Source: a virus
Lineage: Duplodnaviria; Caudoviricetes
Strand: one strand, 5' to 3'
IMG/VR virus record: IMGVR_UViG_3300010052_000155
Location: 1-29,720 of that record
Length of the DNA stretch: 29,720 bases
Shown: piece by piece, positions 973 through 24,402 of the stretch
Numbering within the stretch: the stretch's first letter is position 1
How the letters are laid out: every line of letters starts with the position of its first letter
Position numbers and translations under genes: made by a program
The notes under the pieces: model-generated
The model's input: the letters and a program-made list of their open reading frames with translations, nothing else
Told to the model about the DNA's origin: nothing
Database searches by the model: none

Positions 973-3263
973 AGGTAGGAAACCCTTTCGCGTTGGCGCT
1001 TCTTCGGCGCGTTGACGGATCCGCCTGGGGCGGCGAGTCGGACGCCGCACACTGAGGCGGCGACAGCAGCTCCGACGATGCAATCGAAATAGTGGTTTTG
1101 ACGGGCGGGGATCTTTCGCCACACGTCGACGCGGCGGTTCCCGGTGACTGGCTCCGGCAGTTCGCTCGTCAAATGCTCGGACAGGAAGTCGTGCCGATCC
1201 TTCGCGTCGACGCCGTAGAACGACAGCGATCCCGGATCCCCGCGGTCGGTGAGAAGCCGGCGGGCGGTGAAAGACTTCCAGTGGTAAGTATCGAAAATCA
1301 GGTGCATTCCGGACCGTGAACGGCCGCGGATCAGCCATTCGTCGGGGGAAATGTGTTCGCCTGGCTTCGCGCGGTAGGCGGAAATCGGAACCTGATTCGC
1401 GTCGCAGGTCCGGCCGAACGACGGCATGAGAACGGTTCGGTGTTTCGACTCACGAATCGCCCGCCGGACAACGGCCGAATTGAATCCGCAGTCGATCAGG
1501 CAGCGTGTGAGCCGGAGTTTGACGCCGTCCTCGCGCTCGTAATCGGCGTCCGCGAGCTGCTCGGATAACGCCTGCAGGCCGGCGTAAATCGCCCCGTCGG
1601 GGCCGCGGCTCGGATAGTTCTCCTGCAGGGTGGGCCGGAAGTTCTTCTCGGTGAAATGGGCCCGGGGCGATTTCGGGAACGTGCCGTAGTCGATGACGGT
1701 CCCGGTGAAGTCGGGTTCCCACGCGCAGAGCATCCAGTAAAGGACTTTTTGGTGGACGTCGATGAAGCCTGTGACGTGCTGCGTCCCCTGGGGGAGAATG
1801 AGACGCTTGAAGCCGGAGATTTTCCGGGACAGCTTCGCGGCCTCGAGCTGCAGGCCGTCGCCCTCGCCTGGGGGGAGTGGATCGTTGTTGTATTCCGTGG
1901 CGAACCCTTCCGGGCCCATCTGGAAAAACAGGTTCATCGCGTGTTGGACCGGGCCCAATTCGTCGGCGTCGAATCGGTGCGGGTTCCCGACGACGGCGCC
2001 ATCGTCCATCGCCTCGCGGTTCGCCTTATAGAATCGGGTCGCCCGCTTGTACGGTTCCTCGCAATCGTCGTTGCGCAGATCTTCGCGGACGATCTCGAAG
2101 TATTGCTCCCAAAGCTCGAGGGCGGCTTTCGAGGGGAACGTCGGGAGCATCTTGCCGCGGCGTGACTTCCATTCCGGGTGGCGGTTCTTGTCGAGCAAAC
2201 GGTCGGCGAGGTCGCCCGCTTCAATGACGGTGCAGGCGCAGAGGGCGGACATGCGTTTGCCCTGGGGAGCGCAACCGAGAAGGTCGGCGGTCAGGATCTT
2301 CTCGCGGGTGTTGGTCTGATCGGGGGACGCTGCGGACTCGCGGGTTTGCGGGTCGTCGATCAGAACAAGCGACGGCCGGAGAACCTTCCCGCCTTTCTGC
2401 AGGTGCTTGGCTCCGCGGGTGGCGCTCATCAGTCCGCAAGAGGCGATGATCGCTCCGCTCGAGGGCGAACCGGGGATCGTCGGCAGGATCAGTTTGCGGC
2501 GGGTGAACCGGATCGCGGTTCTCAGGCCGTTGACCGTCTGACCTTTCGCCCGGTTGTGGATCCCTCCAAGAGCGCGGATCGCAAAGCAGACTTCCGGGAA
2601 ATCTTCGTTGAGCCGCTCATTGGTCTCGAGCGTGGTCACGAGGTCGGCGAGCGCGTCGTTTCCCTTCTCGTCGGTCGCGTGAACCAGCATCGAAAACGCG
2701 TGGTATCCGTACAGGGTCGCCCACACGAGCGCCCGTTCGGCGCGGACGGACTTTCCGTCGCCGCGGGGCTCCGCGAACGCCTGCAGGCTCCCCTGCAAAA
2801 CGGTTGTCTGGATCCCCTTGATCTCGGCTTCCTGGTCGGGCGAGAACGGCCGGAAGAACACGTCGGGGAAATACTCGAGATAAAACGCCTTCAGGTCGCG
2901 CCGGCATCGCTCGCGGCGTTCCGGATTGACGACGGGAGGGACCGGGCCGATCTCGCGGGCGGCCGACGATTGTTTCCTCGAGCGGTCCGCCATCCGTTGA
3001 CGGTGGCGATCGCCGGCGTCGGCGGCTTTGACCTGGGCCGCGTTGTTTTGCGATCGGGCGCGAGCGGAAACGATCACGTCGCGCAGCGTGGCGAGCTGGG
3101 CTTTCGTGGCCGTCGCCTGCAGTCGTTCGATATCGAACCCGGTCCCTGCCCGTTCGGCCGCCTTCTCGAGCGCTTTAGTTTGCGCTGGGTTTGCGGCTTC
3201 GCGCAGTGCGGTCCAGAACGCGGAGAACGTCCGCGAAGGGGTCGCCCGTTTTGGTTTCGCCAT
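969..3263 (-). CDS. terL: Terminase large subunit (lambda GpA-type)
   Basis: 764 aa; Walker A-like AEPRGDGKS, Walker B-like LVLIDDPQT, nuclease motif GFIDVHQK, C-terminal NHYFDC motif typical of GpA-family terminases. Confidence 0.93.
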   Translation of the reverse strand: MAKPKRATPSRTFSAFWTALREAANPAQTKALEKAAERAGTGFDIERLQATATKAQLATLRDVIVSARARSQNNAAQVKAADAGDRHRQRMADRSRKQSSAAREIGPVPPVVNPERRERCRRDLKAFYLEYFPDVFFRPFSPDQEAEIKGIQTTVLQGSLQAFAEPRGDGKSVRAERALVWATLYGYHAFSMLVHATDEKGNDALADLVTTLETNERLNEDFPEVCFAIRALGGIHNRAKGQTVNGLRTAIRFTRRKLILPTIPGSPSSGAIIASCGLMSATRGAKHLQKGGKVLRPSLVLIDDPQTRESAASPDQTNTREKILTADLLGCAPQGKRMSALCACTVIEAGDLADRLLDKNRHPEWKSRRGKMLPTFPSKAALELWEQYFEIVREDLRNDDCEEPYKRATRFYKANREAMDDGAVVGNPHRFDADELGPVQHAMNLFFQMGPEGFATEYNNDPLPPGEGDGLQLEAAKLSRKISGFKRLILPQGTQHVTGFIDVHQKVLYWMLCAWEPDFTGTVIDYGTFPKSPRAHFTEKNFRPTLQENYPSRGPDGAIYAGLQALSEQLADADYEREDGVKLRLTRCLIDCGFNSAVVRRAIRESKHRTVLMPSFGRTCDANQVPISAYRAKPGEHISPDEWLIRGRSRSGMHLIFDTYHWKSFTARRLLTDRGDPGSLSFYGVDAKDRHDFLSEHLTSELPEPVTGNRRVDVWRKIPARQNHYFDCIVGAAVAASVCGVRLAAPGGSVNAPKKRQRERVSYL

Positions 3264-3561
3264 CCGTGGCGGTATCCAGTTCCGTCAGCAGCTTCCGAAT
3301 CAACGGAACAAGCTGCATCTGTGCGCGGAATTCCGGGGCGGGCTCCTGCTTTCGCAAGACTCCCTTGTCGTCCCGGATCTCGCTGATTTGCCCGTTTTTA
3401 TTGAGTGAGTCCGTCACGCGAACGAACTGCAGAAACAACTGCGCGGCCTGGGCCGCGGCTGACTCTCCGCGAAACTCTTTCGAGACCTCGAGGGTCTCGA
3501 CGATCGCATCCCAAAACGGCCGCGCGTCTTTCGTCAGCCAATCAGGGGGTTCCCGCTTCAT
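3175..3561 (-). CDS. terS: Terminase small subunit (P27-family-like)
   Basis: Start ATG 3561 (ATGA overlap with the upstream gene), 128 aa; PPDWL..DARPFW..IV..L N-terminus, L.KNG middle and PAPE...Q...IRKLLTEL C-terminus resemble P27/HK97-type TerS; directly upstream of terL. Confidence 0.75.
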   Translation of the reverse strand: MKREPPDWLTKDARPFWDAIVETLEVSKEFRGESAAAQAAQLFLQFVRVTDSLNKNGQISEIRDDKGVLRKQEPAPEFRAQMQLVPLIRKLLTELDTATDGETKTGDPFADVLRVLDRTARSRKPSAN

Positions 3562-3773
3562 GCCGGCGGCTGTAAGACCTTTTCCGCGGGCTCGTCTAGT
3601 CGATCTTCCGGCGGAAGTTCGTCGGCGAACTTTTTGAGGACATCGGCGACGACGTCTTTCAGGTGTCGCCGGCGGGCGGCGGCGTGGCGATCCAAACGGA
3701 GCATCGTCGCGATCGGGAGAGTGATCGTGTACGGCTTCCGGGTTTTTGGGGTGACTGCTGTTGACGGCTGCAT
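3558..3773 (-). CDS. Ribbon-helix-helix DNA-binding protein
   Basis: 71 aa from ATG 3773; beta strand KPYTITLP then helices IATMLRLDRHAAA and LKDVVADVLKKF, the CopG/Arc pattern; coupled to terS. Confidence 0.65.
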   Translation of the reverse strand: MQPSTAVTPKTRKPYTITLPIATMLRLDRHAAARRRHLKDVVADVLKKFADELPPEDRLDEPAEKVLQPPA

Positions 3774-3896
3774 GACCTTGGCGCTCCAGTGGGTTTCGCA
3801 TGACCGGGGGCCGGCAGGGATGCTGCCTCTACAAGCGGGCCCGCACGGATGGCAAACGGGAACGCCTGTCTTTTCACGCATGACGCGTGCCGCTGA

Positions 3897-4490
3897 ATGA
3901 ACCTCCAGGACGGGGATTTATTGGCCTGCTACGGCGGTGATCGCGCGGCTCGCGCAATCTCCGTTGTCACGGCGTCGGTTTTCGCGCCGCGTGGTCTGCG
4001 TCTCGGTCCCTCTCACGTCGGGATCGTTCTCGGTTCCTACCTCTACGAATCGACAACGCTTTGCGATGAGCCCTGCGTTGTGGCTGGCCGCCGCGTTTCC
4101 GGTGTGCAGGCCCACTATCCGAAATCGCGGATCGATTCCTACGTCAATGGTGGTGGCCGCGTCCAGACTTATCGTCTGACGGATCCTTGGCGGCTCTCGC
4201 CGGCGAGTTTGCGGCATTTGTGGGCGATCGTCGATGTGATGATCGCGCAGGGGACGCCTTACGACACGCCCGGGGCTGCTCTTTCGGGGGCTCGACTCTA
4301 TCAGCGGTCGCGGAAGTTTCCGGCGGCCGATTTCCGGCGGTTCTTCTGCTCTGAATTGGTCGCCTTGCTGCTGCAGGTGTCCGGCCGGCTCGACGTCGAG
4401 AATCCAACCCGGTTCAACCCGGGGAAGCTGTTGCGGCGGCTCGTGTCGACGGGTGTCTATCAGCTCGTGGGTGAAAGGGCTTCTCGATGA
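3897..4490 (+). CDS. Permuted papain-like (NlpC/P60, YiiX/YaeF, C92-like) amidase
   Basis: LQDGDLL N-terminus, SHVGI (catalytic His) before FFCSELV (catalytic Cys), GTPYD motif: the permuted NlpC/P60 order. Confidence 0.85.
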   Translation: MNLQDGDLLACYGGDRAARAISVVTASVFAPRGLRLGPSHVGIVLGSYLYESTTLCDEPCVVAGRRVSGVQAHYPKSRIDSYVNGGGRVQTYRLTDPWRLSPASLRHLWAIVDVMIAQGTPYDTPGAALSGARLYQRSRKFPAADFRRFFCSELVALLLQVSGRLDVENPTRFNPGKLLRRLVSTGVYQLVGERASR

Positions 4491-5683
4491 CGCCGTCTCT
4501 GAGTCGATTCCGCCGGCGGGCGGCTGATGAACTGATCATTTTCGCCGTGCTGGCGCTGGCTCTGACGCTCGCGAAAGGCGTCGTCTCCGTGGGTGGGAGC
4601 GTGTTCGCTGGCGACGGCCGGGTTTGCCTGGACGTCTGGTCGCCCGGCGACTGCATCCGATGCGAGGCGTTCGCCGATTGCTTGAAGCGGGATCCGCAGT
4701 TTCGGGCGGCGCTCGAGGCGAAATTCGTCGTCAACGGGCCGGTTTTGGTCGGCAAACATCATTCACACGCCCGGAACCGTGGCGTTCTCGAGGGGCCGTT
4801 TCCGGTGTTCGACCGGGGCCCACAATTCCCGCTCGTGTTCGGATTCGAGTCGCGCGAGAAACTGCTGATCGCCCTCGGCTGTATTCCGGGACGGAATATC
4901 GCACCGGTACCAGCTCCGGCGCCGTTGCCGCTGCCGCCGGCGGTGAATCTGGTACCAGAACAGTCCGGCGAGTTCGCAAAGCAGCTCGAGGCACTCCGGA
5001 AACGGCTCGATGAAGGGCTTTCCGAAACCGTCGACGCGACGCCGATTGTCGACGCGCTCGACAAGCGGGTCGGCGAGCGCCTGGCCGCCGGCTCGAAAGA
5101 CCAGCTCGAGCGGATCCTTGCCGAACTGCGGGCGTCTGAAACCCGGAATCGCGGCTCGGTCGGTTCCGTTCTCGAGAAGATCGAACGGATCGAACGGCTA
5201 CCGCCGGCGATCGTCTCGCTCGCGCCGCCGGCCAAAGTGCCGGCCGTGATCAAGCCGGAGGAACTGAGCGTCAAACTGTTCGGTTTCTCGCTTTCAATGG
5301 TTCAGTTCCTCGCCGGCATCGGTCTGACCGGCGCCGGCGGCGTGGGCGTTCCGCTCCTGGCCGCGAAGGCGATCGCGTTTTTGTGGCGACGCCGGCGGGA
5401 ACGGAAGGCGGCCGGCGGATCCTCGCCGACGGGATCTTCCGCGAACGCCGGCGACGTCCCTCGAGGGAAGGGCTACGGGATCCCGGTCGCGATCGACTCG
5501 CCGATCCCTGATCCGCTCGTGTTGACCGAAAAGCATTATCAGGCCGTGGAAGTCGACACGCACCGAAAGGCGTTCGATTGGGCCTGCGATGAAGTCGTCC
5601 GTAAACAGCCCGGGGCGGTCGACCTGCTCTCTCAACTCCGGGGATTGATCCAGCAAGCTCTGCCAGTGAAGGGGAAGAAATGA
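4487..5683 (+). CDS. Membrane protein with thioredoxin-like CxxC domain, Pro-rich linker, coiled coil and second TM segment
   Basis: 398 aa; N-terminal hydrophobic helix, VWSPGDCIRC followed later by PFPVF (cis-Pro-like), PAPAPLPLPP linker, C-terminal Gly-rich TM ending WRRRRERK; ATGA-coupled on both sides. Confidence 0.65.
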   Translation: MTPSLSRFRRRAADELIIFAVLALALTLAKGVVSVGGSVFAGDGRVCLDVWSPGDCIRCEAFADCLKRDPQFRAALEAKFVVNGPVLVGKHHSHARNRGVLEGPFPVFDRGPQFPLVFGFESREKLLIALGCIPGRNIAPVPAPAPLPLPPAVNLVPEQSGEFAKQLEALRKRLDEGLSETVDATPIVDALDKRVGERLAAGSKDQLERILAELRASETRNRGSVGSVLEKIERIERLPPAIVSLAPPAKVPAVIKPEELSVKLFGFSLSMVQFLAGIGLTGAGGVGVPLLAAKAIAFLWRRRRERKAAGGSSPTGSSANAGDVPRGKGYGIPVAIDSPIPDPLVLTEKHYQAVEVDTHRKAFDWACDEVVRKQPGAVDLLSQLRGLIQQALPVKGKK

Positions 5684-6492
5684 TTTCAGGCCACGACGCG
5701 TTCCTCCATTACAACGTGGGCGATTGGGAAAACTACGGGCTCGCCATCCCGAATTTCGGGAACGATCCCGACTCCCAAAACTCGACGGTTCGCTACCTCG
5801 TCGAAGTGACCGGCCGCAACCTGCAGGCCGTCATGTGGCAACCGGACGCGATGTTGCGATCGGTCCCGACGATCAACACGCTGACGCGCCTGCACAAGCT
5901 CTGCACGCGGGCCCGGTCGATCCTGTCTTCCCGGGCGGTTCCGCCTGGGAAACTGAACATGGAATCGGCACACGCCATTCCGGCCCGCGAGGACTTCCTC
6001 GTCTTCCCGGTTCCTTATTTCAAGGTGCGGAACGGCTGGCTGAAGGAATACGCCGGCCTTGTCCTGACCGGCCTCACGGATGCGATGCAGCATCAGGAGA
6101 ACGCGCGGCCGCTCGAGATTTCGACGGACTTCGCGTCGGCGTTCGGCCAGTATTTCCAGCGGATCTATATCCGGATGTGCGTCGAGCTGCTGCGGATTCC
6201 GCAGGCCGACGCGGAACAGCCCGATTTCACGCTCACTCAAGAGCAACTGTCGGCCTACAACCCGTCGCTCTACTTCACGTCGACCGAACTGATCGACACG
6301 GTTCCGCGCGAGTTTGATCGGCCGACGGAAGACGATCTCGAGGTTCTGACGAACGGAATCCCCTGCTCTGTGCTGCCGAAGCTCAACCGCTATCCGGCCG
6401 GGAATTCGATGGTCGGTTCGGCCTCGAGCGGCTCGACGGCCGTGAAGGCGGCCGGCGACGGAGCTCGGTTCTTCGCTCCCCCTGGCGTTTGA
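5680..6492 (+). CDS. Hypothetical protein (270 aa)
   Basis: Globular composition, SD-like AAGGGG, ATGA overlap with the upstream gene; no motif recognised. Confidence 0.75.
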   Translation: MISGHDAFLHYNVGDWENYGLAIPNFGNDPDSQNSTVRYLVEVTGRNLQAVMWQPDAMLRSVPTINTLTRLHKLCTRARSILSSRAVPPGKLNMESAHAIPAREDFLVFPVPYFKVRNGWLKEYAGLVLTGLTDAMQHQENARPLEISTDFASAFGQYFQRIYIRMCVELLRIPQADAEQPDFTLTQEQLSAYNPSLYFTSTELIDTVPREFDRPTEDDLEVLTNGIPCSVLPKLNRYPAGNSMVGSASSGSTAVKAAGDGARFFAPPGV

Positions 6493-6508
6493 TTTCTTCC
6501 CTGGGCGC

Positions 6509-6545
6509 GCCGCGGCGGCGAGGGCTACGTCGCCGCGGCTCTTTT
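6509..6545 (+). terminator. Intrinsic terminator-like hairpin
   Basis: GCCGCGGCGGCG-AGGGCTA-CGTCGCCGCGGC stem-loop followed by TCTTTT. Confidence 0.65.
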
Positions 6546-6553
6546 GATTCGAA

Positions 6554-6590
6554 CGCCGTCACGGATGACGGCGGCTCCTGCAGGATGCGG
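6554..6590 (+). promoter_or_regulatory. Tandem CsrA-type GGA hairpins over the SNase ribosome-binding site
   Basis: CGCCGTC-ACGGAT-GACGGCG (7-bp stem, ANGGAN loop) and CTGC-AGGAT-GCGG, the latter 5 nt before ATG 6596. Confidence 0.7.
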
Positions 6591-6595
6591 ATTCG

Positions 6596-6985
6596 ATGGT
6601 TCCTCAACCCGGCGTGTGTCTCGATGCGGTCGTCGTCGACGTGATCGACGGCGACACGGTCCGCGTCGAAGTGAAACGGACGTTCGACGTTCGTCTCCTC
6701 GATTGCTGGTGTCCGGAGTCGCGCACGAAAGACGACGCCGAAAAGGCTCGAGGGCTCGCCGCGAAAGAGCGGACGAAAGCCCTCGTCGGCGGTCGCCTTG
6801 TTCGGGTTCTGATTCCCGCCGGCGATCCGACTCGGCTCCTCGACGTCACGACGTTCGGCCGGGTTCTCGGCCGGATCTTCGTCGACGGGAAGAACCTCGC
6901 GCAGCAGCTCGTCAAAGAAGGGCTCGCCGCGGTCTCGAAAGAGGATCAGGCGGCGATCTTCGGAAAGGGTCGTTACGACAAATGA
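6596..6985 (+). CDS. Thermonuclease (SNase-like) family nuclease
   Basis: VVDVIDGDTVRV, VRLLDCWCPE and FGRVLGRIFVDGKNLAQQLVKEGLA motifs; no signal peptide. Confidence 0.92.
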   Translation: MVPQPGVCLDAVVVDVIDGDTVRVEVKRTFDVRLLDCWCPESRTKDDAEKARGLAAKERTKALVGGRLVRVLIPAGDPTRLLDVTTFGRVLGRIFVDGKNLAQQLVKEGLAAVSKEDQAAIFGKGRYDK

Positions 6986-7242
6986 TCAAGGTTTCTCCGT
7001 TCCGGACGTCGCGGGATATCGCCCGGTCGGCCGGCATCAACCGGATCGAAACGGTCGGCCAACAAATCGCCGTTGCGCAGCTCGTTTTGTTGAGCGCGAC
7101 GGCGCCGGCGATCGCTCGCCGGCAACTCTCCGCAGCGTTCGAAGGATCCGCGCAGCCGCGGACCGTCGATCGTGAGTGTCCCGGGTGCGGGGCCGCGGTC
7201 CCCGACGGCCGCCCTGGTCGTCGCTGTCAGTCCTGTCGATAG
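6982..7242 (+). CDS. Small protein with HTH-like N-terminus and C-terminal Zn ribbon
   Basis: ATG 6982 (ATGA overlap), 86 aa; SRDIARSAGINRIETVGQ (HTH-like), CPGC and CQSC. Confidence 0.6.
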   Translation: MIKVSPFRTSRDIARSAGINRIETVGQQIAVAQLVLLSATAPAIARRQLSAAFEGSAQPRTVDRECPGCGAAVPDGRPGRRCQSCR

Positions 7243-7250
7243 GGTCATCC

Positions 7251-7490
7251 GTGAAAGCTCGTCTCATTCGCTGGTTTCTGACGGCCGTTCATTACTTCAT
7301 CCGGGCTCGCCTCGAGCGGATCCTTTGCGAAGCGGCGGCCGACGGGATCATCACGAAAGGCGACGTCGCCGAATTGTCGAACCGCCTGGATCCCGCGTGC
7401 CGGGCTCCGCGGCTCGTGTTCCGCCGGCTCTCCCCGGAAGAACTTCGGGGCCTCTTGAACTTTCCGCCGAAGAAGTTGGGGCCAAAATGA
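7251..7490 (+). CDS. Hypothetical protein (79 aa)
   Basis: GTG 7251 lies 8 nt after the previous stop; its TGA overlaps the next ATG. Confidence 0.55.
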   Translation: MKARLIRWFLTAVHYFIRARLERILCEAAADGIITKGDVAELSNRLDPACRAPRLVFRRLSPEELRGLLNFPPKKLGPK

Positions 7491-8074
7491 GTTCGCCAGA
7501 TGACGCGGGGCCCATCGTCCCGCGTCCCGAATGTCGATTCCCTCGAGCGGTCGATTCCGATGCGCAGCTCTCCGACGCTGTCGCGTGGGTCGCCTGGGCT
7601 AATGCTGAGGCCGAAGCGATCGACGCCGACGCGGAAAGGCGTTGCCAGACCATCAAGGCGGCGGCGGCCCGGCGTATCGCAAAATTGCGATCGGCCCGGA
7701 TCGACAATGCGGGCCTCCAGATTGATCGCTACGTCGTCCGGAATCGCCGGCGGCTCCTGGCCGACGGGAAGACGCTACGTCTCGCCGGCGGCGTGGTGCA
7801 GGTCCGCAGGGGCAACGAAGCGGTGGCGATCGTCGGCAAGGAATCGGAATCCGAAGTCGTCGACCGCATCGCGCAGGCAACGGGGGCCGATCGTGCGATT
7901 GCTGAAGCCCTCGAGGGCGCCGGCGCGGCGACCTGGCTCCGGGTGTCGCTGGCGCTCAATCGGGAACGAATCAAACGCGACGTGGGAAACGGTGTGATCG
8001 ACTCAAGCGCCCTCGCTACGCATCGACTGAAAATCGAGCGGCCCGAATCGATCCGCGTTTCCCGCGCCGCGTGA
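7487..8074 (+). CDS. gam: Mu Gam-like host-nuclease inhibitor (Ku-related DNA end-binding protein)
   Basis: ATG 7487, 195 aa; N-terminal coiled coil, Y...NR..LL.DGKTLRLAGGVVQVR (K-S/T-x-x-L-x-x-G-x-V-x-x-R of Gam) and LNRERIK near the C-terminus. Confidence 0.7.
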   Translation: MSSPDDAGPIVPRPECRFPRAVDSDAQLSDAVAWVAWANAEAEAIDADAERRCQTIKAAAARRIAKLRSARIDNAGLQIDRYVVRNRRRLLADGKTLRLAGGVVQVRRGNEAVAIVGKESESEVVDRIAQATGADRAIAEALEGAGAATWLRVSLALNRERIKRDVGNGVIDSSALATHRLKIERPESIRVSRAA

Positions 8075-8094
8075 AAACTCCGCGGCGGTTATCC
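8066..8094 (+). repeat. Right copy of 29-bp inverted repeat (partner 668-696)
   Basis: 27/29 identity to the minus-strand copy; includes the gam stop codon; internal dyad CGCCGCG-TGAAAACTC-CGCGGCG. Confidence 0.9.
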
Positions 8095-8136
8095 GGCGTC
8101 GGCTCGAGGCGGGCCGCTCCGTAGTCTCCGCGAATC

Positions 8137-8340
8137 ATGGCCGCCCAAACGCTCGACGAACGCATCGCCGAAATCGAATCGCAGATCGATTCAGGCGTGA
8201 CGACGTTCACCGCGGACGGCGTCACGACGACGGTCGATCTCGAGTTTCTCAAGTCGCGGTTGTCGGAACTGAAGGCGGAAAAGGCGGGCAGAACGGACCG
8301 GGCTCCGTTCGTCTCTCTGAACCTGGGCAGCGCTTGGTAA
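8137..8340 (+). CDS. Head-tail joining protein (lambda gpW-like)
   Basis: 67 aa helix-hairpin-helix pattern (IAEIESQIDSG-VTTFTADGVTTTVDL-EFLKSRLSEL), directly before the portal. Confidence 0.75.
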   Translation: MAAQTLDERIAEIESQIDSGVTTFTADGVTTTVDLEFLKSRLSELKAEKAGRTDRAPFVSLNLGSAW

Positions 8341-9767
8341 TGGCGACGCGGAAAATGACGCCGACGGCGAAACGTCGGTCGAAAGCAGCGGGGGCCAGTG
8401 GCTCGCGCGCTCTCGGCTATGACGCCGCCGAAACGTCGAAGCGTCGCAAAGCGCCTTGTTCGACGATCACGTCCGAAGATGCCGTCGTCACGTCGAAGAA
8501 ACGCGACACGCTCGTCGGCGGGGCTCGCGATGTCGCCCGCAATTTCGCAATCGCCGCGTGGGCCATCCGGCGACACCTGGATTACGTCGTCTCACACAAG
8601 CTGCACTGCCGCACGGGCAATGCGGAGTTCGACGTCGAGTTCCAGAAATGGTTCGTCCGGATCACGTCGGCGGACGTGTTCGACGTGGCCGGCCGGCATC
8701 CGTTCGACCGCTATTTGCGGCTGATGGAAGCCGCGAAAGTCGTCGGCGGCGACCTGGGGAACCTGTTCCTTCAGACCGGTCATTTGCAGGCGATCGAAAG
8801 CGATCTGATCCGGGATCCGGAAGACAAGCGGGACGACACGATTCACGGCGTCCGGACGGACATCGCCGGGCGTGCAATCGCCTATCACGTTCGGCCGCGG
8901 GGCCGGAACGGCAAGGGCTACGGCGACGGGCGATGGATCCCGGCCGATAGCTTCTTTCTGCACGCGCAATTTGACCGCTTCGATCAATACCGCGGCATCG
9001 CTCCGATCGTGTCGGGCCTGAACAGCCTGCGCGACCTCTACGAAGGGTTCGACTATGGGCTCGCGAAGCTGAAAGTCGAGCAGCTCTTTTGCATGGCGAT
9101 CTTCCGTAAGGAAGGCGTCGAGCTGCCTGGAACAGAGACGGAAAGCGCGGAGCGCGGCAAATACAAGGTCGACATGGGGAACGGTCCGGTTCTCCTCGAC
9201 CTGGATCCTGGCGACGACGCCAAGTTCCTTAAGAGCGATTCGCCTGGGGCCAATACCCGGGAGTTCCTCGCGGCTGTGGCGATGGTGGCGCTCAAGGCGC
9301 TCGACATCCCTTACAGCTTTTTCGATGAGTCGTTCACCAACTTCTATGGCTCGGTGGGAGCGTGGCGGCATTACGACCGCTCTTGCGTCAGCAAACGCAG
9401 CGACATTCAGGCGTTTCTCAATTGGTGGATGGTCAAGCGGGTTGCCCTGGGGATCGTCCGCGGAGAGCTGCGGATTCCGGCCGGTCTCACGCTCGCAAAT
9501 CCGTGGTGGGAGTTCGTCCCGTCGGGCATGCCGTGGTGGGATCCCTCGAAAGAAATCAACGCGGATCTCCAACGGGTGATGGCCGGTTGGGGCACTCCGC
9601 AGCAAATCGCGAAGGAACGCGGCGTCGGCGATTGGTTCCAGAACATTGAAGAAACGGGCCGGGCCCTCGAGTTCGCGAGAACGAAAGGCGTTTCCGTCTC
9701 ATTCGCTCCGCAGGCTCCGGCCGCGCCGGATCCGGTCGACGATCAGCAGAAGGAAGAGAAGCCGTGA
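8340..9767 (+). CDS. Portal protein, lambda family
   Basis: GYDAA...RR N-terminus, ARDVARN, R.DQYRGI.P and W.DP.KE..A motifs of lambda gpB-type portals. Confidence 0.92.
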   Translation: MATRKMTPTAKRRSKAAGASGSRALGYDAAETSKRRKAPCSTITSEDAVVTSKKRDTLVGGARDVARNFAIAAWAIRRHLDYVVSHKLHCRTGNAEFDVEFQKWFVRITSADVFDVAGRHPFDRYLRLMEAAKVVGGDLGNLFLQTGHLQAIESDLIRDPEDKRDDTIHGVRTDIAGRAIAYHVRPRGRNGKGYGDGRWIPADSFFLHAQFDRFDQYRGIAPIVSGLNSLRDLYEGFDYGLAKLKVEQLFCMAIFRKEGVELPGTETESAERGKYKVDMGNGPVLLDLDPGDDAKFLKSDSPGANTREFLAAVAMVALKALDIPYSFFDESFTNFYGSVGAWRHYDRSCVSKRSDIQAFLNWWMVKRVALGIVRGELRIPAGLTLANPWWEFVPSGMPWWDPSKEINADLQRVMAGWGTPQQIAKERGVGDWFQNIEETGRALEFARTKGVSVSFAPQAPAAPDPVDDQQKEEKP

Positions 9768-10951
9768 AGAAACCCGCACTCGACAAAGCGCCTGAACACG
9801 TTCGCTCATTCTCCGGCCGCGGCCTTGCCGCTGCGAAGGAAGGCGAGAAACGCGTCGACCGCAAGGGGGGCGAGTTTTCCGCCGGCATCATCCGGGGCGT
9901 CTCGGTCATCACTCGAGGGGAAGCCCTGGGCCATGATGCCTGGATCGACTCGACGTTCCTCGATTCGGTCGCCGGCGCCATGGCGGCCAAGAAAAGCGGC
10001 ATCAAATCACGGTTCACGCATCCCGGCCTTTCGTCGGATGCGATGGGCTCCGCGCTCGGGTTCCTGAAGGATCCGCGGCGCGAAGGCGATCAGGTGTTCG
10101 CCGACCTGCATTTCACGGAAGCCTCTCACACGTCGCCGCGTGGCGACCTGGGCTCCTATGTGATGCAGCTCGCGGAAGAGACGCCGGAAGAGTTCGGATT
10201 GTCGATCGTGTTCGATGACGACCTCGAGGCGGAATCCGCTCACCTGAATGAGCATTCGGAAGAACTGACGGACACGGATCCCGACACGGGCCGCCGGCGG
10301 AAGCTGAAGCGGTTCAAGTCGCCGGATCCGGACAACGTCAAGAACCTGCAACACGTCCGGCTTTCCAGTCTGCGGGCCGGCGACGTCGTCGACACGCCGG
10401 CCGCCAACGCCGGCGGCATGTTCTCCGAAGATCGTCACGACGCGTTGATCATCGAAGCGGAACGGTCAATGGCGTACGCGCTGGGGCTCGAGGGGGCGAC
10501 CGCTCCCGACGGCTCGGCATTTTCGATTCATCCTGAACGGCTGAAGCGATTCGCGGAGCGTTTCCTCGAGTCGCGGGGCCTGACCATCGTCAAGAAAGAC
10601 GGGGCAAAAATGGCTGAGGGCAAGTCGCCTGCTGACGGTGGGGAACAGAACCCGCCGGCCGACGTCCGCGCGGAATTCGCGGCCAACCTGGACAAGTTCA
10701 CGAAACAGTTCGGCGCGCAGCTCGGAAGCGAATACCTCGCCGCCGGCCTGACCTTCGAAGCCTCGCTCGTGAAGTTCGCCGCGCATCAAGGCGAGAAGAT
10801 CGCCGCCGAAAAGAAGCGGGCCGACGACGCGGAAACCAAGCTGTCGGAAGTGAAGATCGGCGAATCGAAGCCGCTCCCCGCCGGCGACGGCGAGAAGGAA
10901 GCGCCGAAGTCGTTCTCGTCTCTGATCAAGGTTCCGACCGCGAAGAAGTAA
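9764..10951 (+). CDS. Prohead protease / scaffold fusion (putative)
   Basis: Lies between portal and capsid; IIRGVSVITRGEALGH, SRFTH, FGLSIVF and DVVDTPAAN fit a herpes/HK97-fold protease (His...Ser...PA); helical charged C-terminal scaffold-like region. Confidence 0.75.
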   Translation: MKKPALDKAPEHVRSFSGRGLAAAKEGEKRVDRKGGEFSAGIIRGVSVITRGEALGHDAWIDSTFLDSVAGAMAAKKSGIKSRFTHPGLSSDAMGSALGFLKDPRREGDQVFADLHFTEASHTSPRGDLGSYVMQLAEETPEEFGLSIVFDDDLEAESAHLNEHSEELTDTDPDTGRRRKLKRFKSPDPDNVKNLQHVRLSSLRAGDVVDTPAANAGGMFSEDRHDALIIEAERSMAYALGLEGATAPDGSAFSIHPERLKRFAERFLESRGLTIVKKDGAKMAEGKSPADGGEQNPPADVRAEFAANLDKFTKQFGAQLGSEYLAAGLTFEASLVKFAAHQGEKIAAEKKRADDAETKLSEVKIGESKPLPAGDGEKEAPKSFSSLIKVPTAKK

Positions 10952-10953
10952 GC

Positions 10954-11019
10954 CGACGCCTGGGAGGGCGTCGCGACTGAGTTTCCCCTGACCCGGGAAC
11001 ACGCTGCAAAGGATTGCAG
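10954..11019 (+). promoter_or_regulatory. CsrA-type GGA hairpins in the major capsid leader
   Basis: CGACGCC-TGGGAG-GGCGTCG (10954-10973) and CTGCA-AAGGAT-TGCAG (11004-11019), the latter containing the SD, 5 nt before ATG 11025. Confidence 0.7.
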
Positions 11020-11024
11020 GTCCA

Positions 11025-11963
11025 ATGGCTGACAGTTTTTCCACCCTGACCGATCTCGCGAAGATCAACGATACGTCGATCCGCGACCTCGAGGGCCTTT
11101 CCGACATTCTGAACGATGCTCCCCTCTTCGCGGCCCTGGCCGCGGCCGGCTCGAGCAACGGGACGAATCACCAGTACACGAAACAGACCGGGGCTCCGGC
11201 CGTCGGTTTCCGCGCCGCGAATGCCGGCGTCGACATGCTCAAGGCGACCGATACGGTCGTTTCGATGGATCTGAAGATCCTCGACGCGTCGTTCATGGTC
11301 GATATGGCGATCGCCGACGCTTACGGCGGCGGTCCGGAAAAGTGGCTCGCCCGCGAGGGTAAGCGCTTCCTGAAAGCCGCGTTCGCCGCCGGCGAAGGCG
11401 CCGTCCTGAACGGCGTCTCGGGAACCTTTGACGGGCTCCTGCAGGCGATGAACGACATCAGCCCGAACCCGGGCAATATCTACAACGCCGCCGGCGCCGC
11501 CGCGAACGCCGAATCGTCGATCTATCTGATCCGGACGAACGACGACGGCGAGGACGTCACGTTGATCGGCAAGGGTGAAGGCGGCGGAATCAAAATCGCC
11601 CTGGGCGAACCCGTCGTGACGGCCCGCGTCGATGCCAGCGGAAAGACGTTCCCCGCGTACTACGTCCCCTGCCAAGCCTGGATGGGCCTGCAGGTCGGCG
11701 GCCTGTATTCGGTGGTGCGTATCTGCAACATCGCCGCGGCAACGACCGTCAACGACGCGCTCATCTACGAAGCGCTCGCGCTGTTCCCGGCCAGCCGGCA
11801 GCCGAACCTGATCGTGATGAACCGTCCGAACCTGAAGAAGCTGCGAGCCAGCCGAACCGCGACCAACGCGACCGGCGCTCCGGCTCCGCGGCCGACGGAA
11901 GTCGAAGGCATTCCGATCATCGTGACCGACACGCTCGGGATGACCGAAGCCGTCGTCGCGTAA
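11025..11963 (+). CDS. Major capsid protein (epsilon15 gp7 / BPP-1-like)
   Basis: 312 aa; G..H.Y....G.P...FR..N.G, VD.A.AD, F.GL, SSIYL, S..RICNI and C-terminal GIPI...D....TEAV match my recollection of epsilon15 gp7. Confidence 0.85.
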   Translation: MADSFSTLTDLAKINDTSIRDLEGLSDILNDAPLFAALAAAGSSNGTNHQYTKQTGAPAVGFRAANAGVDMLKATDTVVSMDLKILDASFMVDMAIADAYGGGPEKWLAREGKRFLKAAFAAGEGAVLNGVSGTFDGLLQAMNDISPNPGNIYNAAGAAANAESSIYLIRTNDDGEDVTLIGKGEGGGIKIALGEPVVTARVDASGKTFPAYYVPCQAWMGLQVGGLYSVVRICNIAAATTVNDALIYEALALFPASRQPNLIVMNRPNLKKLRASRTATNATGAPAPRPTEVEGIPIIVTDTLGMTEAVVA

Positions 11964-11978
11964 TCCGTGTCCTCCCCT

Positions 11979-12034
11979 GATCGCCGGCGGCCTCGGTCCA
12001 ACCGGGTCGCCGCTGGCCGCCGGCGGTCGTTTTT
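11979..12034 (+). terminator. Intrinsic terminator-like hairpin after the capsid gene
   Basis: GATCGCCGGCGGCC ... GGCCGCCGGCGGTC followed by GTTTTT. Confidence 0.65.
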
Positions 12035-12046
12035 GAGGGTGTGACG

Positions 12047-13448: not shown

Positions 13449-13462
13449 TCGAAGGTGCAAGG

Positions 13463-13900
13463 ATGCAGTACGGAATCGATTGCAAGCTCTACAAGAACAG
13501 CGCCAGCTATGAGACGCCCACTTGGGGTCTCCTGGACATCGTGTCCAACGTCAAACTCAATTGTGAGTATGGCGAAGGCGACTCGACGAACCGGGCCGGC
13601 GGGGGCGTGGAAACCGTCGAGCCGACGTTGAAGAAAATCTCGATCGAGTTCGACGTGAAGGCGGACAATGCGTCGACGCAGTTCACGGCTCTCCGAGACG
13701 CGTTCTGGGCCAAAACGGCGATGGAGATCGCTTGTCTGGATGGGCTCGTCGCGACCGTGGGCTCGAGCGGCATCCGCGGGTGGTTCAAGGTGATCACGTT
13801 CAACCGGGACGAATCCGACGACAACATCGTTGTCTACAACGTCACGCTCAAGCCGTGTCAGGCGGCCAACCCGCTGACAAAAATGGTCATTTCTGTGTAA
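13463..13900 (+). CDS. Tail tube (major tail) protein
   Basis: ~145 aa, beta-rich; GIDCKLY...PTW, D.T.R..GG, L....IEF and F.R.E......Y.VTLKP pattern; no sheath gene, so a non-contractile tail. Alternative start 13445. Confidence 0.8.
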   Translation: MQYGIDCKLYKNSASYETPTWGLLDIVSNVKLNCEYGEGDSTNRAGGGVETVEPTLKKISIEFDVKADNASTQFTALRDAFWAKTAMEIACLDGLVATVGSSGIRGWFKVITFNRDESDDNIVVYNVTLKPCQAANPLTKMVISV

Positions 13901-13967
13901 CGCGGGATCCGCGTTGCTGGTTCTCTGGTCTCGTTTTCAGGTCTCAAGGATGGGGAGGTTTTGAGTC

Positions 13968-14318: not shown

Positions 14319-14341
14319 TCGTCCTGGCGTTTGATTGTGGA

Positions 14342-14408
14342 ACCGGGCCGCGTTGCCACGACGGCCGCGCGGCCCGGTGCATTTGAAACACTCCGGCAGG
14401 GAGGCCGG
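14342..14408 (+). promoter_or_regulatory. 11-bp hairpin plus SD-sequestering ANGGAN hairpin before the tail chaperone
   Basis: ACCGGGCCGCG/CGCGGCCCGGT (14342-14378), then CCGGC-AGGGAG-GCCGG (14393-14408) 5 nt before ATG 14414. Confidence 0.65.
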
Positions 14409-14413
14409 TCCAA

Positions 14414-14902
14414 ATGGCTCAATTCTCGGATAGTAAATCGGGCGTGTGGCTCGTCAGCGTGACGATGGGCACGGTGAAGCGGGTGAAAGATGAGACGGGC
14501 TTCAATGTCCTGGACCTCGTCGATCCGCGGTCGGATCTGGTGAAGCAACTCGCCCGGGATCCGGTCGATCTGTTTTTGATCCTGACGTCGGTTCTCCGTC
14601 CGCAGCTCGTCGAGCGCGGCATCAGCGACGACCAGTTCGCGGAGTTGCTGAACGAAGCGCAAATCGACGCGGCCTGCACTGCGTTGATGGAGGCGACCTT
14701 CGATTTTTTCCAACCGAAGAAGCGGGGCATTCTGAAGAATGCGCACGCGAAGGTGAACACGGCGTTCGATCGTGTTCGGAATCAGTCGATGGAGGAAGCG
14801 GAACGCGCTCTCGCGAGTCCGACGATCGATCTCGAACTCGAGGAAGCCTTTCGGAAAGGGCTTGGGCTCTCGGCTGGAAGTTCGCCGGCGTCATCGGCGT
14901 AG
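14414..14902 (+). CDS. Tail assembly chaperone (gpG-like)
   Basis: 162 aa upstream of the tape measure; contains DFF encoded by GAT TTT TTC. Confidence 0.8.
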   Translation: MAQFSDSKSGVWLVSVTMGTVKRVKDETGFNVLDLVDPRSDLVKQLARDPVDLFLILTSVLRPQLVERGISDDQFAELLNEAQIDAACTALMEATFDFFQPKKRGILKNAHAKVNTAFDRVRNQSMEEAERALASPTIDLELEEAFRKGLGLSAGSSPASSA

Positions 14903-15144
14903 ACCCGTCCCCGTTCAGTCTTCGGGAGTTGTTCCCGATGTGGGCCGGGAAACGTGACCACGATTGGAGCCAAACCGCGGAGCTGTGGGCCCTGCAGGCG
15001 AATTGCAACCGGGATCCGGCGAAACGATCGAAGGCGTACAGCGCCCGCGATCTCTGCCCCTGGCTCCCGGAACCTCCAAAGAAATCGCAACCGCTCGAGC
15101 GGATCACGCCGCGCGAAATCTCATTGATGCTGTTCGGAAAGTGA
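14704..15144 (+). CDS. -1 frameshift extension of the tail chaperone (gpGT-like)
   Basis: Slippery T TTT TTC at 14704-14710; the -1 frame is open from there to TGA at 15142-15144 and encodes WKFAGVIGVDPSPFSLRELFPMWAGKRDHDW. Confidence 0.75.
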   Translation, partial: FFPTEEAGHSEECAREGEHGVRSCSESVDGGSGTRSRESDDRSRTRGSLSERAWALGWKFAGVIGVDPSPFSLRELFPMWAGKRDHDWSQTAELWALQANCNRDPAKRSKAYSARDLCPWLPEPPKKSQPLERITPREISLMLFGK

Positions 15145-15148
15145 CACG

Positions 15149-17125
15149 ATGGCGGGCAACGCAAAAGCGATCGAAGCCGGACGGGCGTTTGTCCGTCTGT
15201 TCTCGGACGATACGGCGCTCCGTCGAGGTCTGAAGCTCGCGGGCGAGCGGCTCCGCTCCTGGTCGATGAACGCGCTGAAGGTCGCCGGCGGGGCGTTCAC
15301 GCTTGGCGCCGGCATTCTGACGCCGATTCTGGCGGCCGTCGCCGCGTATGAATCGGCCGGCTCGAACCTCGCCGACGCGGCCGCGCGGACCGGGATCCCG
15401 GTCGAGACGCTTTCGGGCCTGCGCTTCGCTGCGGAACAGTCGGCGACGGATCTCGAGACGCTCGAAGCGGGCCTCGGCCGGATGACGAAAGTCGTCGAGA
15501 AGGCTACGCGGGGTTCGAAAGGCGCTGAGGCGGCGTTGAATGACGTCGGCCTCTCGGCTTCCGCGCTCGCCGGGCTCTCTCCCGATGAACAGTTCCGCAC
15601 CATCGCCGAAGCGCTCTCACGGATTCAGGATCCGGGCGAGCGGGCCGCCAAGGCGATGGCGATCTTCGGGAAAGCCGGAACGAAGCTCCTGCCGTTGATG
15701 AACGGCGGGGCGGCCGGGATCCGGGATCTCGAGGAGGAAGCGAAACGGCTCGGCCTGACGATGTCGACAGAAGACGCCGCGGCGGCCGAAACGCTCGGCG
15801 ACAGTATCGGCACGCTGAAAGCCTTGTTCGGGCAGATGGCGGTGGTGATCGGCTCGACGGTCGCTCCGTTGGTGCAGACGTTCACGACGCACGCGATCGA
15901 AGCCTCGAAAATCGTCCTGACGTGGATTCGGGACAATCGCGAGTTGATTCTGACGGCGGTGAAGATCGGGCTTGCGCTGATGACGGCGGCGGCGGCGATC
16001 GCTGCGGTCGCCGTTGCGGGGCTCGGTCTATCCGCCTTGTTCTCGGGTCTCTCGGTCATCATCGGGGCCGTGGGCAGCGTGTTCGCGTTCCTCGGATCGG
16101 CGGTCGCGTTTCTGGTGTCTCCGCTCGGGATTGTTGTCGCCCTGGTCTCCGGGCTGGCGGCCTATGCGTTGTCGGCCGGCGGGGCGATCGAATGGCTGCG
16201 GTCGACCTTCTCGACGCTGACGGCCGGCGCCATGGGTGCGTTCGCCGCGATCGGCAAAGCCATGTCGGCGGGCGACCTCGGCCTCGCGGCCCGCGTCCTC
16301 TGGACCTATCTCAAAAGCGAATGGCAACGCGGGATCAACACGCTGTATTCCGCCTGGGCCGGCGTCCGGAACTGGTTTGTCGGCCTTTGGTCCGACGCGG
16401 TGTTCGGCGTCGTCCGCGTCGCGTTCAAGGTGTGGGGCGCTCTGAAATACGGGTTCAGTGAAGCGGTACGGTTCATGGCCGACGCCTTCTCCGCGTTCAG
16501 CTCGGGATTGATGAAGGGCTGGCATAACACGGTGGGCTTTATCCGGAAGGCGTGGACGCGGCTCAAAGCCCTCTTTAACAGCGACATCAACGTCGACGCC
16601 GAAGTCGAGCGGATCAACAAAGAGACGACGAACAACAACCGGCGCGTCGACACGGATCGGGATTCGCGGATCTCCGCGAGGGATCAGGTCGCGCGGGAAA
16701 ACCGGATCAAGTCGGAACAGGCCGAAAAGGCGTTCCTGGATTCGCTGCGCGAGCAACAGAACGTGGCGGACTCGTCGCGCGAGCAGAAATACGCCGATGA
16801 CCTGCGGCGCTCACAGGAAGAGTTGAAGCGAGCGCAGGACGACTATTCGGCGACGCTCGGGGAAGTGAACGCGTTGCCTGAGACGGCGACGACGAAACCA
16901 GTCCCGACGCCGGCGGAAGTGCGCGTCGATCAGGCCGCGGCGGGGCTCTCGAACGCCGAATCGAAGTTCAGCAGCTCGGGGACGTTCGCGGCCGCCGGCG
17001 TCGCCGGCCTGCAGGTCGGATCTCTCGACAAGCGGATCGCGACGGCGACGGAAAAGACGGCGATTGCGACGAAGAAGATCGCCGACGAGATGGACGATCA
17101 GGGCTTCACTTTGGGCGGTGACTAA
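15149..17125 (+). CDS. Tape measure protein
   Basis: 658 aa, Ala/Gly-rich helical; AGRAFVRL N-terminus, AMAIFGKAGTKLLPLM motif, hydrophobic central segments, periodic W/F. Confidence 0.92.
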   Translation: MAGNAKAIEAGRAFVRLFSDDTALRRGLKLAGERLRSWSMNALKVAGGAFTLGAGILTPILAAVAAYESAGSNLADAAARTGIPVETLSGLRFAAEQSATDLETLEAGLGRMTKVVEKATRGSKGAEAALNDVGLSASALAGLSPDEQFRTIAEALSRIQDPGERAAKAMAIFGKAGTKLLPLMNGGAAGIRDLEEEAKRLGLTMSTEDAAAAETLGDSIGTLKALFGQMAVVIGSTVAPLVQTFTTHAIEASKIVLTWIRDNRELILTAVKIGLALMTAAAAIAAVAVAGLGLSALFSGLSVIIGAVGSVFAFLGSAVAFLVSPLGIVVALVSGLAAYALSAGGAIEWLRSTFSTLTAGAMGAFAAIGKAMSAGDLGLAARVLWTYLKSEWQRGINTLYSAWAGVRNWFVGLWSDAVFGVVRVAFKVWGALKYGFSEAVRFMADAFSAFSSGLMKGWHNTVGFIRKAWTRLKALFNSDINVDAEVERINKETTNNNRRVDTDRDSRISARDQVARENRIKSEQAEKAFLDSLREQQNVADSSREQKYADDLRRSQEELKRAQDDYSATLGEVNALPETATTKPVPTPAEVRVDQAAAGLSNAESKFSSSGTFAAAGVAGLQVGSLDKRIATATEKTAIATKKIADEMDDQGFTLGGD

Positions 17126-21661: not shown

Positions 21662-21675
21662 GAGTGGGTAACGGT

Positions 21676-22270: not shown

Positions 22271-22315
22271 GGTTCGCCTCATGGTTGATGGGGTAATTGC
22301 GTGTTCCCCGGCCGC

Positions 22316-22890: not shown

Positions 22891-22933
22891 AGTCTTCCTC
22901 CTGATGGTTGGGTAATGGTTCGTTCCCCGCCGA

Positions 22934-23137: not shown

Positions 23138-24162
23138 CGGTTCGGGTCTCCCTCGAGGGCCGCCAGCAATCGCCGCCGCAACACGCGGCCGATTCCATGC
23201 CGGCGAAAGCGTTTGAGCTCCAACGGCTCCAAGGTCCGCCGGGCGAGCGCCTCGAGGGCGTCCGCCGGCATTGCGTCCAGTTCTCTCCCGAAACTTCGCT
23301 CCAGACGCTCCAGCTCCGCGGCTGACGCGTTCCGGGCCTTCTCCGCGTCCTCGGCCTCGGCCGCTCTCCTGGCGGCCTCCTGTGCGTTCTGTGCGGCGAT
23401 TTGGGCCGACACGGACCGGGCGGGCCATCCACGATCGACCGGAAGGTCCGGCCGTGCGTTCTGAAGCCTTCGGACCAGCGCCCCGGGGCCCCATCCGTTC
23501 GGCGGGCCCTGGGTGCGGAAATAATCGATCAGCTCGAGGATGGTCCCTTCGCTGATCGTGGCTCGAGCCGCGGCAAGGGCTGCCGTCGGCCATTCAATCC
23601 CGATCGAAACAAGAACCGCCGCCGCCTCGTCGGATTTGGGCCCGGCGGGTTTGGGGGTAGGGGGTGGCGGTTCTTTTTGCGCTTCTTGAAGAGGACAGGT
23701 TTCCACTCGTGGCGGGTGGGGTCTGCTCTCGTGGCGGCTGGCAACCGCCATGGTGGCGGGTGGGGTCTCCCTCTTTGGCGGCTGTGGATCCGCGAAATCG
23801 GAAAGGCTTTCGAGATTGCTCCAGACGATCCAGCGGTGAAAAACCCGCCTGGGCCGCCGGCGCCCGTCGGAATCGAGTTCCTCTTCCTCCTCAACGATCG
23901 CGAGAACGTCGCGCAGGACGGCGATCGCCCGTTCGGCGACGCGCTCGCTGCAGCTTGCTCTCTGAGCGATGAGGGCGATTGAAGCGAAACAGGTTCCGCC
24001 CTGGCGGGCGAAACCGTCGATCACGCGGAGAACGCCTTTCAGGACGACACCGGAAACCGACGAGCCGCGTTCGGCCCGGTAGGACCGGGCGAAAACGGCG
24101 TCGTCGATCAAACGGAGCTGCGTCCCCCGCGTGAAATTGAGGGTCTGTTGTCGAGCATCCAT
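23128..24162 (-). CDS. Replication initiator (winged-HTH, lambda O-like organisation)
   Basis: CFASIALIAQRASCSERVAERAIAVL is the typical HTH_36-like motif; Pro-rich central linker carrying iterons. Confidence 0.75.
   Translation of the reverse strand: MDARQQTLNFTRGTQLRLIDDAVFARSYRAERGSSVSGVVLKGVLRVIDGFARQGGTCFASIALIAQRASCSERVAERAIAVLRDVLAIVEEEEELDSDGRRRPRRVFHRWIVWSNLESLSDFADPQPPKRETPPATMAVASRHESRPHPPRVETCPLQEAQKEPPPPTPKPAGPKSDEAAAVLVSIGIEWPTAALAAARATISEGTILELIDYFRTQGPPNGWGPGALVRRLQNARPDLPVDRGWPARSVSAQIAAQNAQEAARRAAEAEDAEKARNASAAELERLERSFGRELDAMPADALEALARRTLEPLELKRFRRHGIGRVLRRRLLAALEGDPNRCR
23706..23793. repeat. Four 22-bp-period iterons (putative replication origin)
   Basis: Core (G/T)TGGCGG(G/C)TG at 23709, 23731, 23753 and 23775; GTGGCGGGTGGGGTCT exact at 23709 and 23753; T-rich patch at 23671-23690. 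Confidence 0.75.
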
Positions 24163-24174
24163 GCGAAGCTCGCG

Positions 24175-24402
24175 TCATGCGGCCGGCGTGGGTGTGACCG
24201 GCAACGTCGGTCGCGGTTCCCTGGGCTCCTTCTTCGTGGCCTCGGGTCTCTCGATGGCGAAAGACGGCGGGGCGGCAATCCCAAGCCTCGCCGCGCTCTT
24301 ACCCACCCTGATCATGTCGATATTGATGATGGTCCCGGCGGGGATCGCCTCTTTCGCAATGATCTGGGTTCGCTCGCCCTTCTCACGTTTCAAAACAAGC
24401 AT
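24175..24402 (-). CDS. csrA: Carbon storage regulator CsrA/RsmA-family RNA-binding protein
   Basis: 75 aa from ATG 24402 (SD GGAGG): MLVLKREKGER...ARLGIAAPPSFAIERPE matches MLxLxRxxGE...VRxGIxAPxxVxxxRxE, keeping the R44-equivalent Arg. Confidence 0.85.
   Translation of the reverse strand: MLVLKREKGERTQIIAKEAIPAGTIINIDMIRVGKSAARLGIAAPPSFAIERPEATKKEPREPRPTLPVTPTPAA

Follow-up and report, generated by a model that had tools for sequence, protein, structure and literature searches.

Genes and hairpins of the window

We analysed a 29,720-base virus record, IMGVR_UViG_3300010052_000155 (the window, meaning this whole stretch at its full length; about 63% GC), in which hairpins with an ANGGAN loop lie on the start regions of several late genes and a divergent CsrA-family gene lies in the early operon. 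The window encodes terminase, lambda-type portal, capsid, tube, tape measure (at 15149, PHROG), integrase, helix-turn-helix and replication-initiator-like genes (Pfam, PHROG), and its sequence is that of a temperate phage, likely with a Planctomycetaceae-type host. A Planctomycetaceae member is the likely host because named relatives of the capsid are mostly Planctomycetota; the best, at 66-67% identity, are in a Planctomyces sp. metagenome-assembled genome. The closest syntenic prophage, L081, has the gene order from terL to tail in common with the window. No Pfam match was obtained for the amidase-like gene, and the chaperone gene matched no family in Pfam, PHROG and further profile searches. 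The terL, amidase and nuclease genes head blocks that are joined via start-stop overlaps. No sigma-70-type promoter was found in 3000-15500.

Table 1 Genes, hairpins and related sites in the window. WC, Watson-Crick; SD, Shine-Dalgarno sequence. Stem probabilities are from ensemble folding in four context sizes.
Feature	Coordinates	Strand	Evidence or remarks
Terminase large subunit (gpA type), start inside terS coding region	969..3263	-	Pfam PF20454, PHROG 38/15
Terminase small subunit (terS)	3175..3561	-	PHROG 83, E 2e-4, on longer open reading frame 3175-3801; 52% identical homologue in L081
terL hairpin, 4 WC bp, ACGGAU loop overlapping AUG (-4)	3258..3271	-	Stem probability 0.32-0.99; L081 keeps 3/4 pairs
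Amidase-leader hairpin, AGGGAU loop, 81 nt 5' of start	3812..3825	+	Stem probability 0.08-0.99; L081 keeps 4/4 pairs
Second CACGGATG in amidase leader	3844-3851	+	
Permuted papain-like amidase (C92-like), heads coupled block	3897..4490	+	Atlas structure match PF05708, TM 0.79
Terminator-like stem, immediately 5' of nuclease leader	6509..6539	+	
Twin nuclease-leader hairpins	6554..6590	+	7 WC bp, ACGGAU loop (-35); weaker AGGAU pentaloop over SD (-14)
Staphylococcal-nuclease-family gene	6596..6985	+	Pfam PF00565
Capsid hairpin, 5 WC bp, AAGGAU loop = SD, at -16	11004..11019	+	Stem probability 0.70-0.98; imperfect in L081
Major capsid protein	11025..11963	+	Pfam PF20911, PHROG 212
Tube site, CAAGGAUG over AUG 13463 (-4), 3 bp, predicted unstable	13456..13467	+	Stem probability 0.00-0.21
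Tail tube protein, start set by homologues in L081 and L154	13463..13900	+	PHROG 1407
CAAGGAUG site 5' of gene 13968, 1 WC + 3 G-U, predicted unstable	13942..13955	+	Stem probability 0.01-0.26
Chaperone hairpin, 5 WC bp, AGGGAG loop = SD, at -16	14393..14408	+	Stem probability 0.11-0.90
Likely tail assembly chaperone	14414..14902	+	Named by position between tube and tape measure
Divergent CsrA-family gene, early operon	24175..24402	-	Pfam PF02599; PHROG 9500 and 678; model resembles RsmN/RsmF
CATGGAGG (CANGGANG) over csrA's own ribosome-binding site	24412..24419	-	No stable stem

A first-pass annotation of this DNA had proposed seven such stem-loops as a phage-wide set on late-gene ribosome-binding sites, under the control of the phage CsrA or of host paralogs. 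All seven sequences are present exactly as quoted and at the positions given, and Pfam bears out the staphylococcal nuclease identity of the gene behind one of them, but the term phage-wide overstates their reach: a stem of at least three WC pairs (WC≥3) was found at 4 of the 21 called late genes and at none of the portal, protease, tape measure and tail-tip genes, so the sites belong to a subset. Placement on a start holds for terL, tube, capsid, chaperone and the second nuclease site, and does not hold for the amidase (-81) and first nuclease (-35) hairpins.

The stems at the terminase, nuclease, capsid and tail chaperone sites are perfect over 4-7 bp. When folded as ensembles, those of terL, nuclease (0.84-1.00 for the first stem) and capsid were stable in most contexts, those of the chaperone and the amidase leader were context-dependent, and those of the tube and gene 13968 were not stable; on these probabilities we count four sites as strong and two as motif matches without a stable stem. 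Competing folds were predicted for the chaperone and tube leaders. The closing pair is C-G at six of the seven sites, and six of the seven leaders hold extra GGA motifs. As noticed in the first pass, the capsid and chaperone hairpins have one geometry (5 WC bp, hexaloop, -16) and different stem sequences. Their leaders (10996-11030 and 14385-14419) also share ACAC before the stem and a TCCA-type spacer plus ATGGCT after it. Both GGA sites of the amidase leader align with GGA sites in L081. The same two sites overlap the AUGs of short upstream open reading frames (3820-3900 and 3849-3896, + strand) that end at the amidase start and are not found in L081.

Start-region hairpins exceed chance

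Judged by sequence statistics, the ANGGAN-loop hairpins predicted at the terminase, nuclease, capsid and tail chaperone starts are non-random and carry a CsrA signature. There are 215 ANGGAN hexamers on the two strands of the window, 17 of them near starts (-40 to +5 of 42 hand-set starts, two of these misplaced). Stems of at least four WC pairs (WC≥4) enclose 4 of the 17 near-start hexamers and 1 of the 198 elsewhere (Fisher p = 1.3e-4), and all three hexamers with stems of at least 5 bp are near late starts. Shuffling the flanks with the hexamer held fixed gave an expectation of 0.07 against the four observed (p = 5e-5, the floor of 20,000 shuffles), so the start-region enrichment goes beyond chance. 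With starts from an independent gene caller written for the analysis, 4 of 14 near-start hexamers had stems, against 0.03 expected.

Such hairpins were rare both in host genes and in five GC-matched control phages. The host sample (60 stretches of 20 kb from three genomes, 872 called genes) yielded 8 WC≥4 sites among 194 near-start hexamers, with about 1.0 expected from shuffles; per gene, this is 8/872 against 4/38 in the window (p = 0.001). A host excess was seen in G054 (5/75 vs 0.4 expected, one a duplicate) and G051 (2/67 vs 0.4). In G054, a gene present in two copies with identical starts (L304:10787 and L307:10807), possibly an insertion sequence, has a perfect 5-bp AAGGAU hairpin at -12. 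Similar host genes in two Planctomycetaceae genomes (L297:7833 and L311:18139) keep an AAGGAG hairpin at -16 and are a candidate host CsrA target. The control phages (phiC31, TM4, Bxb1, 16-3 and BPP-1; 59-68% GC; four read over 41-50 kb) held one WC≥4 site in 118 hexamers from 324 genes, with 0.4 expected (p = 4e-4 vs the window). To our knowledge, the hosts of these phages other than S. meliloti lack csrA. S. meliloti is itself reported to be without csrA (PMC7366521).

Hairpins in relatives share one loop register

Single-sequence searches of viral contigs for close relatives gave no capsid loci and two terL loci. We fetched 233 capsid loci, which left 147 dereplicated capsid leaders, and scanned 35 loop registers around 498 GGA motifs in 433 leaders with the window removed. 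An excess was seen only in the NN-GGA-N register, with 18 stems against 1.7 expected (17 against 1.2 in the A-U-collapsed form). The next highest cell, 7 against 2.0, was on the same diagonal, and the other 33 registers held at most 7. Within the relatives' hairpins, 28 of 34 begin the loop with A (background 209/498) and 16 of 34 are closed by C-G. In sequence, these hairpins match the ANGGAN hexaloop and the consensus from in vitro selection (SELEX) described for CsrA-family proteins (PMC3791407, PMC7652899), the latter being RUACARGGAUGU (PMC7652899). This signal is independent of the sites chosen in the first pass. Late genes of the relatives carry hairpins more often than other genes (13/632 vs 5/802, p = 0.014), the latter including flanking host genes.

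By family, and with the window included, WC≥4 stems were found at 4 of 46 tube hexamers, 3 of 37 chaperone hexamers and 2 of 13 hexamers in the g17125 family, with no excess at portal (0/19), protease (0/16) and gpW (0/5) starts. The ordinary state of the 147 capsid leaders is an open AAGGA SD near -14, and 5 of 97 capsid hexamers have WC≥4 stems (0.4 expected). Family-wide conservation of the capsid hairpin was therefore rejected.

These patterns bear on an explanation that needs no protein, in which the role of the stems is to adjust translation initiation or mRNA stability for abundant virion proteins, the location of the AAGGA SD in the loop is accidental and the weaker sites arose by chance. 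The capsid family does ordinarily use AAGGA at about -14 as its SD, the tube and gene-13968 stems are unstable, and the motif was first picked by an earlier reader on the window sequence itself. We nevertheless consider this account improbable, since only one loop register shows the excess, with A in first position and frequent closure by C-G, the ACGGAU loops over AUG are not SD sequences, and the control phages show no excess at WC≥3 (2 vs 1.6 expected).

Partial conservation in the syntenic prophage L081

L081 has hairpins at terL (-4), in the amidase leader (-82), at the capsid (-12, imperfect) and at the chaperone (-16), the last in the same position with one G-C to U-A change. Across these four sites 15 of 18 pairs are kept, and the preserved stems are suggestive of conserved pairing at the sequence level. 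The first-pass annotation had pointed to stem covariation as a check, and five of the seven two-sided changes do still pair; this count is not significant alone (about 0.14, our estimate), the four sites were chosen after looking, because L081 has them, and a formal covariation test on these two sequences has no power. Further hairpins lie at the portal and g17125 genes of L081. At the portal start (L081:7338-7375) two tandem ACGGAUG hairpins each overlap an in-frame AUG. In a closer relative, L154 (77% DNA identity over 2.2 kb), the tube site is missing from the place it has in the window. L081 also carries a divergent csrA-like gene 5' of its replication gene (Pfam E 0.037).

A divergent CsrA in the early operon

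The early-operon csrA homologue is confirmed by Pfam, scoring 37.1 bits against the Pfam CsrA gathering cut-off of 27. It sits between a DUF2303 gene and a replication-initiator-like gene, directly upstream of the latter. Its score against the canonical CsrA equivalog TIGR00202 is 23.4 bits, below the curated cut-off of 70.1. A word-indexed search with the protein finds only itself and a full scan seven weak relatives; its Atlas neighbours are mostly viral CsrA clusters, with scores under 0.9. L4 (strand 1) and R52 (after strand 5) are kept. The latter is the equivalent of R44, whose presence the first pass had assumed, and is invariant in 18 of 18 rows; functional roles of L4 and R44 in CsrA are described in PMC7652899.

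The predicted structure has five strands (predicted local distance difference test score, pLDDT, 84.9) and an insertion of about nine residues after strand 2, with residues 17-26 modelled as coil. The top four Foldseek rows for the monomer are RsmN/RsmF (template modelling score about 0.6, E 6e-3), none with E<=0.001. Like RsmN/RsmF of Pseudomonas aeruginosa (PDB 4KJI, 4K59; PMC3791407), the phage protein has an insertion after strand 2 and no long C-terminal helix. The alpha helix between strands 2 and 3 that marks that subfamily is absent from the model, in which the insertion is coil, and the monomer model may mimic the non-swapped fold. A homodimer model scored 0.54, against 0.00 for the best control (96% contact agreement between runs, pLDDT 76). 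Of solved pairs 20 of 30 attain this mark, and of single chains 1 of 23; the phage model may attain it through likeness to solved CsrA dimers.

The CANGGANG motif over the ribosome-binding site recurs at phage csrA starts: 6 of 13 have it, compared with 68 of 1472 genes (7 of 17 when four starts inspected visually are added). E. coli csrA is known to repress itself (PMC7652899). The start of the adjoining replication gene (24156-24163, - strand) reads CATGGATG (CANGGANG), with a 2-bp stem.

A protein of this kind might lift a translational block rather than impose one, either because it pairs with host CsrA into inactive mixed dimers or because it stabilises an open fold at leaders whose start is buried in competing structures. 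Its divergence (the missed equivalog cut-offs and the insertion after strand 2) and the competing folds in the chaperone and tube leaders would fit, and there is precedent for translational activation by CsrA (PMC7652899). In the capsid, chaperone, terL and tube leaders, however, the loop either forms the SD or overlies the AUG, which is repression geometry, and the RNA-binding residues are kept; we regard this scheme as very unlikely.

Phage csrA and the number of late hairpins

We compared hairpin numbers in 37 phage records with and without csrA. A terL match was present in 115 of 398 genomes of the family, from which 20 prophage regions were fetched and read; G428a/b and G054a/b were dropped before the count (few late genes in the stretch), and G015 and G017 were left out as duplicates of G169b and G296. 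WC≥3 hairpins were found at 23 of 314 late genes in the 18 records with csrA and at 7 of 340 in the 19 without (about two expected in each; Mann-Whitney p = 0.013), an association whose statistics ignore kinship and in which many records without csrA are fragments. The p value was 0.035 without the window and L081 and 0.055 at WC≥4. At least two late hairpins occurred in 6/18 records with csrA and 1/19 without. The csrA genes of G116 and G281a were confirmed in phage-like early operons, and the status of G078 was set by position alone. The csrA near prophage G296 was counted as a host gene because its score resembles that of canonical host copies and its position is 4 kb beyond the integrase; counted as phage-borne, it would strengthen the association.

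Taken with the csrA-start motif, the hairpins make Csr-type control of these late genes, by the phage's or a host paralog, likely as far as sequence can tell. The account we prefer, and hold tentatively as a little short of an even balance, is that the late-gene hairpins are docking sites for CsrA-family dimers and that the phage CsrA, likely with host paralogs, blocks ribosomes until late mRNA outnumbers the protein. Several results weigh against it, besides the post hoc choice of L081 sites and the modest count of preserved double changes. Within one host family the association with csrA has p = 0.096, and with the csrA-lacking set limited to 10 near-complete or chromosomal records p = 0.17 (0.28 also without the window and L081). 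No late hairpin was found in 8 of the 18 records with csrA, and four occur in prophage G296, in whose early operon no csrA was found. In the window, late and early genes do not differ significantly (6/12 vs 0/5 near-start hexamers, p = 0.075). The tube and nuclease hexaloops are not kept in L081, a plain unstructured SD is the rule in the capsid family, and ribosomes translating terS would melt the terL hairpin, which is located within that gene. Finally, 29 of 32 host genomes have csrA matches (0-20 each).

The last point leads to an alternative in which the sites are operators of host CsrA only, silencing leaky late transcripts in the lysogen or tying virion output to host state, and the phage CsrA acts on host mRNAs, for example those of defence genes. 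Beyond the many host paralogs, the smaller excess of the same hairpins in G054 and G051 host genes and the occurrence of hairpins without an early csrA in both G296 and G169b speak for it. The csrA products of the window and L081 are just 22% identical while their capsids are 66% identical, and phage Rsm proteins have been proposed to suppress host defence (PMC8450108). Six of the seven records with at least two late hairpins nonetheless carry csrA, and the early operon is the expected expression site for a lytic-cycle regulator; we see host-only operators as possible, though on the unlikely side.

A candidate translational gate for late genes

If the phage protein does bind these sites, it would be made early and limited by CANGGANG on its own ribosome-binding site, and together with host paralogs it would keep leaky late transcripts silent. 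From known Csr biology, initiation would be blocked by CsrA bound to a loop that serves as SD or overlaps the AUG. Abundant late mRNA might then titrate CsrA as early transcription and csrA translation fall, a step that we infer, as we do the part of the phage protein. Several of the sites head coupled blocks, so that a few hairpins could gate more genes. The timer role suggested in the first pass would follow from such titration. In its fullest form, this would be a purely translational late switch in a planctomycete temperate phage lineage, in which a self-limiting CsrA made early shuts off the first genes of the head, tail and packaging blocks and is titrated by the hairpin-rich late mRNA, so that virion assembly has a threshold timer; we offer this as a speculative and rather doubtful extension. 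No Rfam match at gathering score, including sponge or antagonist small RNAs, was found in the window.

The window sites resemble those of the CsrA/RsmA/RsmE systems, as in RsmE-hcnA (PDB 2JPP), in that a short stem carries a six-base loop with GGA, placed over the SD or start. They differ in that the targets are phage morphogenesis genes and the host is a planctomycete with many paralogs, and the sites are predictions. A CAAGGAUG stem-loop is bound by a non-proteobacterial CsrA (PMC13418256). Phage-borne csrA has been published before, with alleles in 30 of 2517 phages (PMC7366521), smaller plaques on knockdown of coliphage PTXU04 gp28 (PMC11879866) and possible virion association of the CsrA gp47 of Burkholderia phage JC1 (PMC9144972). 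As far as the accessible text of these reports and of PMC8450108 goes, they propose host or defence targets, or an effect on plaque size only, and name no phage mRNA targets. Csr has also been tied to the phage life cycle from the host side, through a link of host csrA to the cI repressor in Salmonella prophages (PMC12371270) and Csr control of a prophage in Serratia (cited in PMC7366521), in the available text via cI or unspecified routes and not via operators at late-gene starts. A search of titles and abstracts, mostly outside subscription papers and supplements, found none that deals with CsrA operators at the late genes of phages or with CsrA from planctomycete phages. Phage csrA genes are common, and the papers cited suggest host genes as their targets; in the window the candidate targets are virion and packaging mRNAs of the phage itself, each site placed to the nucleotide. 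If correct, late-gene control would gain a translational gate, and there would be a first clue to what the many planctomycete CsrA paralogs recognise.

Neighbouring genes

The terminase block (400-3773, - strand) is inverted relative to the structural operon from 3897 onward (+ strand), as it is in L081, and the divergent starts of the leftward and rightward blocks are only 123 nt apart. The leftward block is headed by a small gene without a family match, which may encode a ribbon-helix-helix protein; in L081 and G395, ANGGAN hairpins lie at the starts of the corresponding genes. In the early operon, 25741-26364 (- strand) encodes a small protein with a DNA polymerase beta thumb domain, and a similar gene adjoins csrA in L261.

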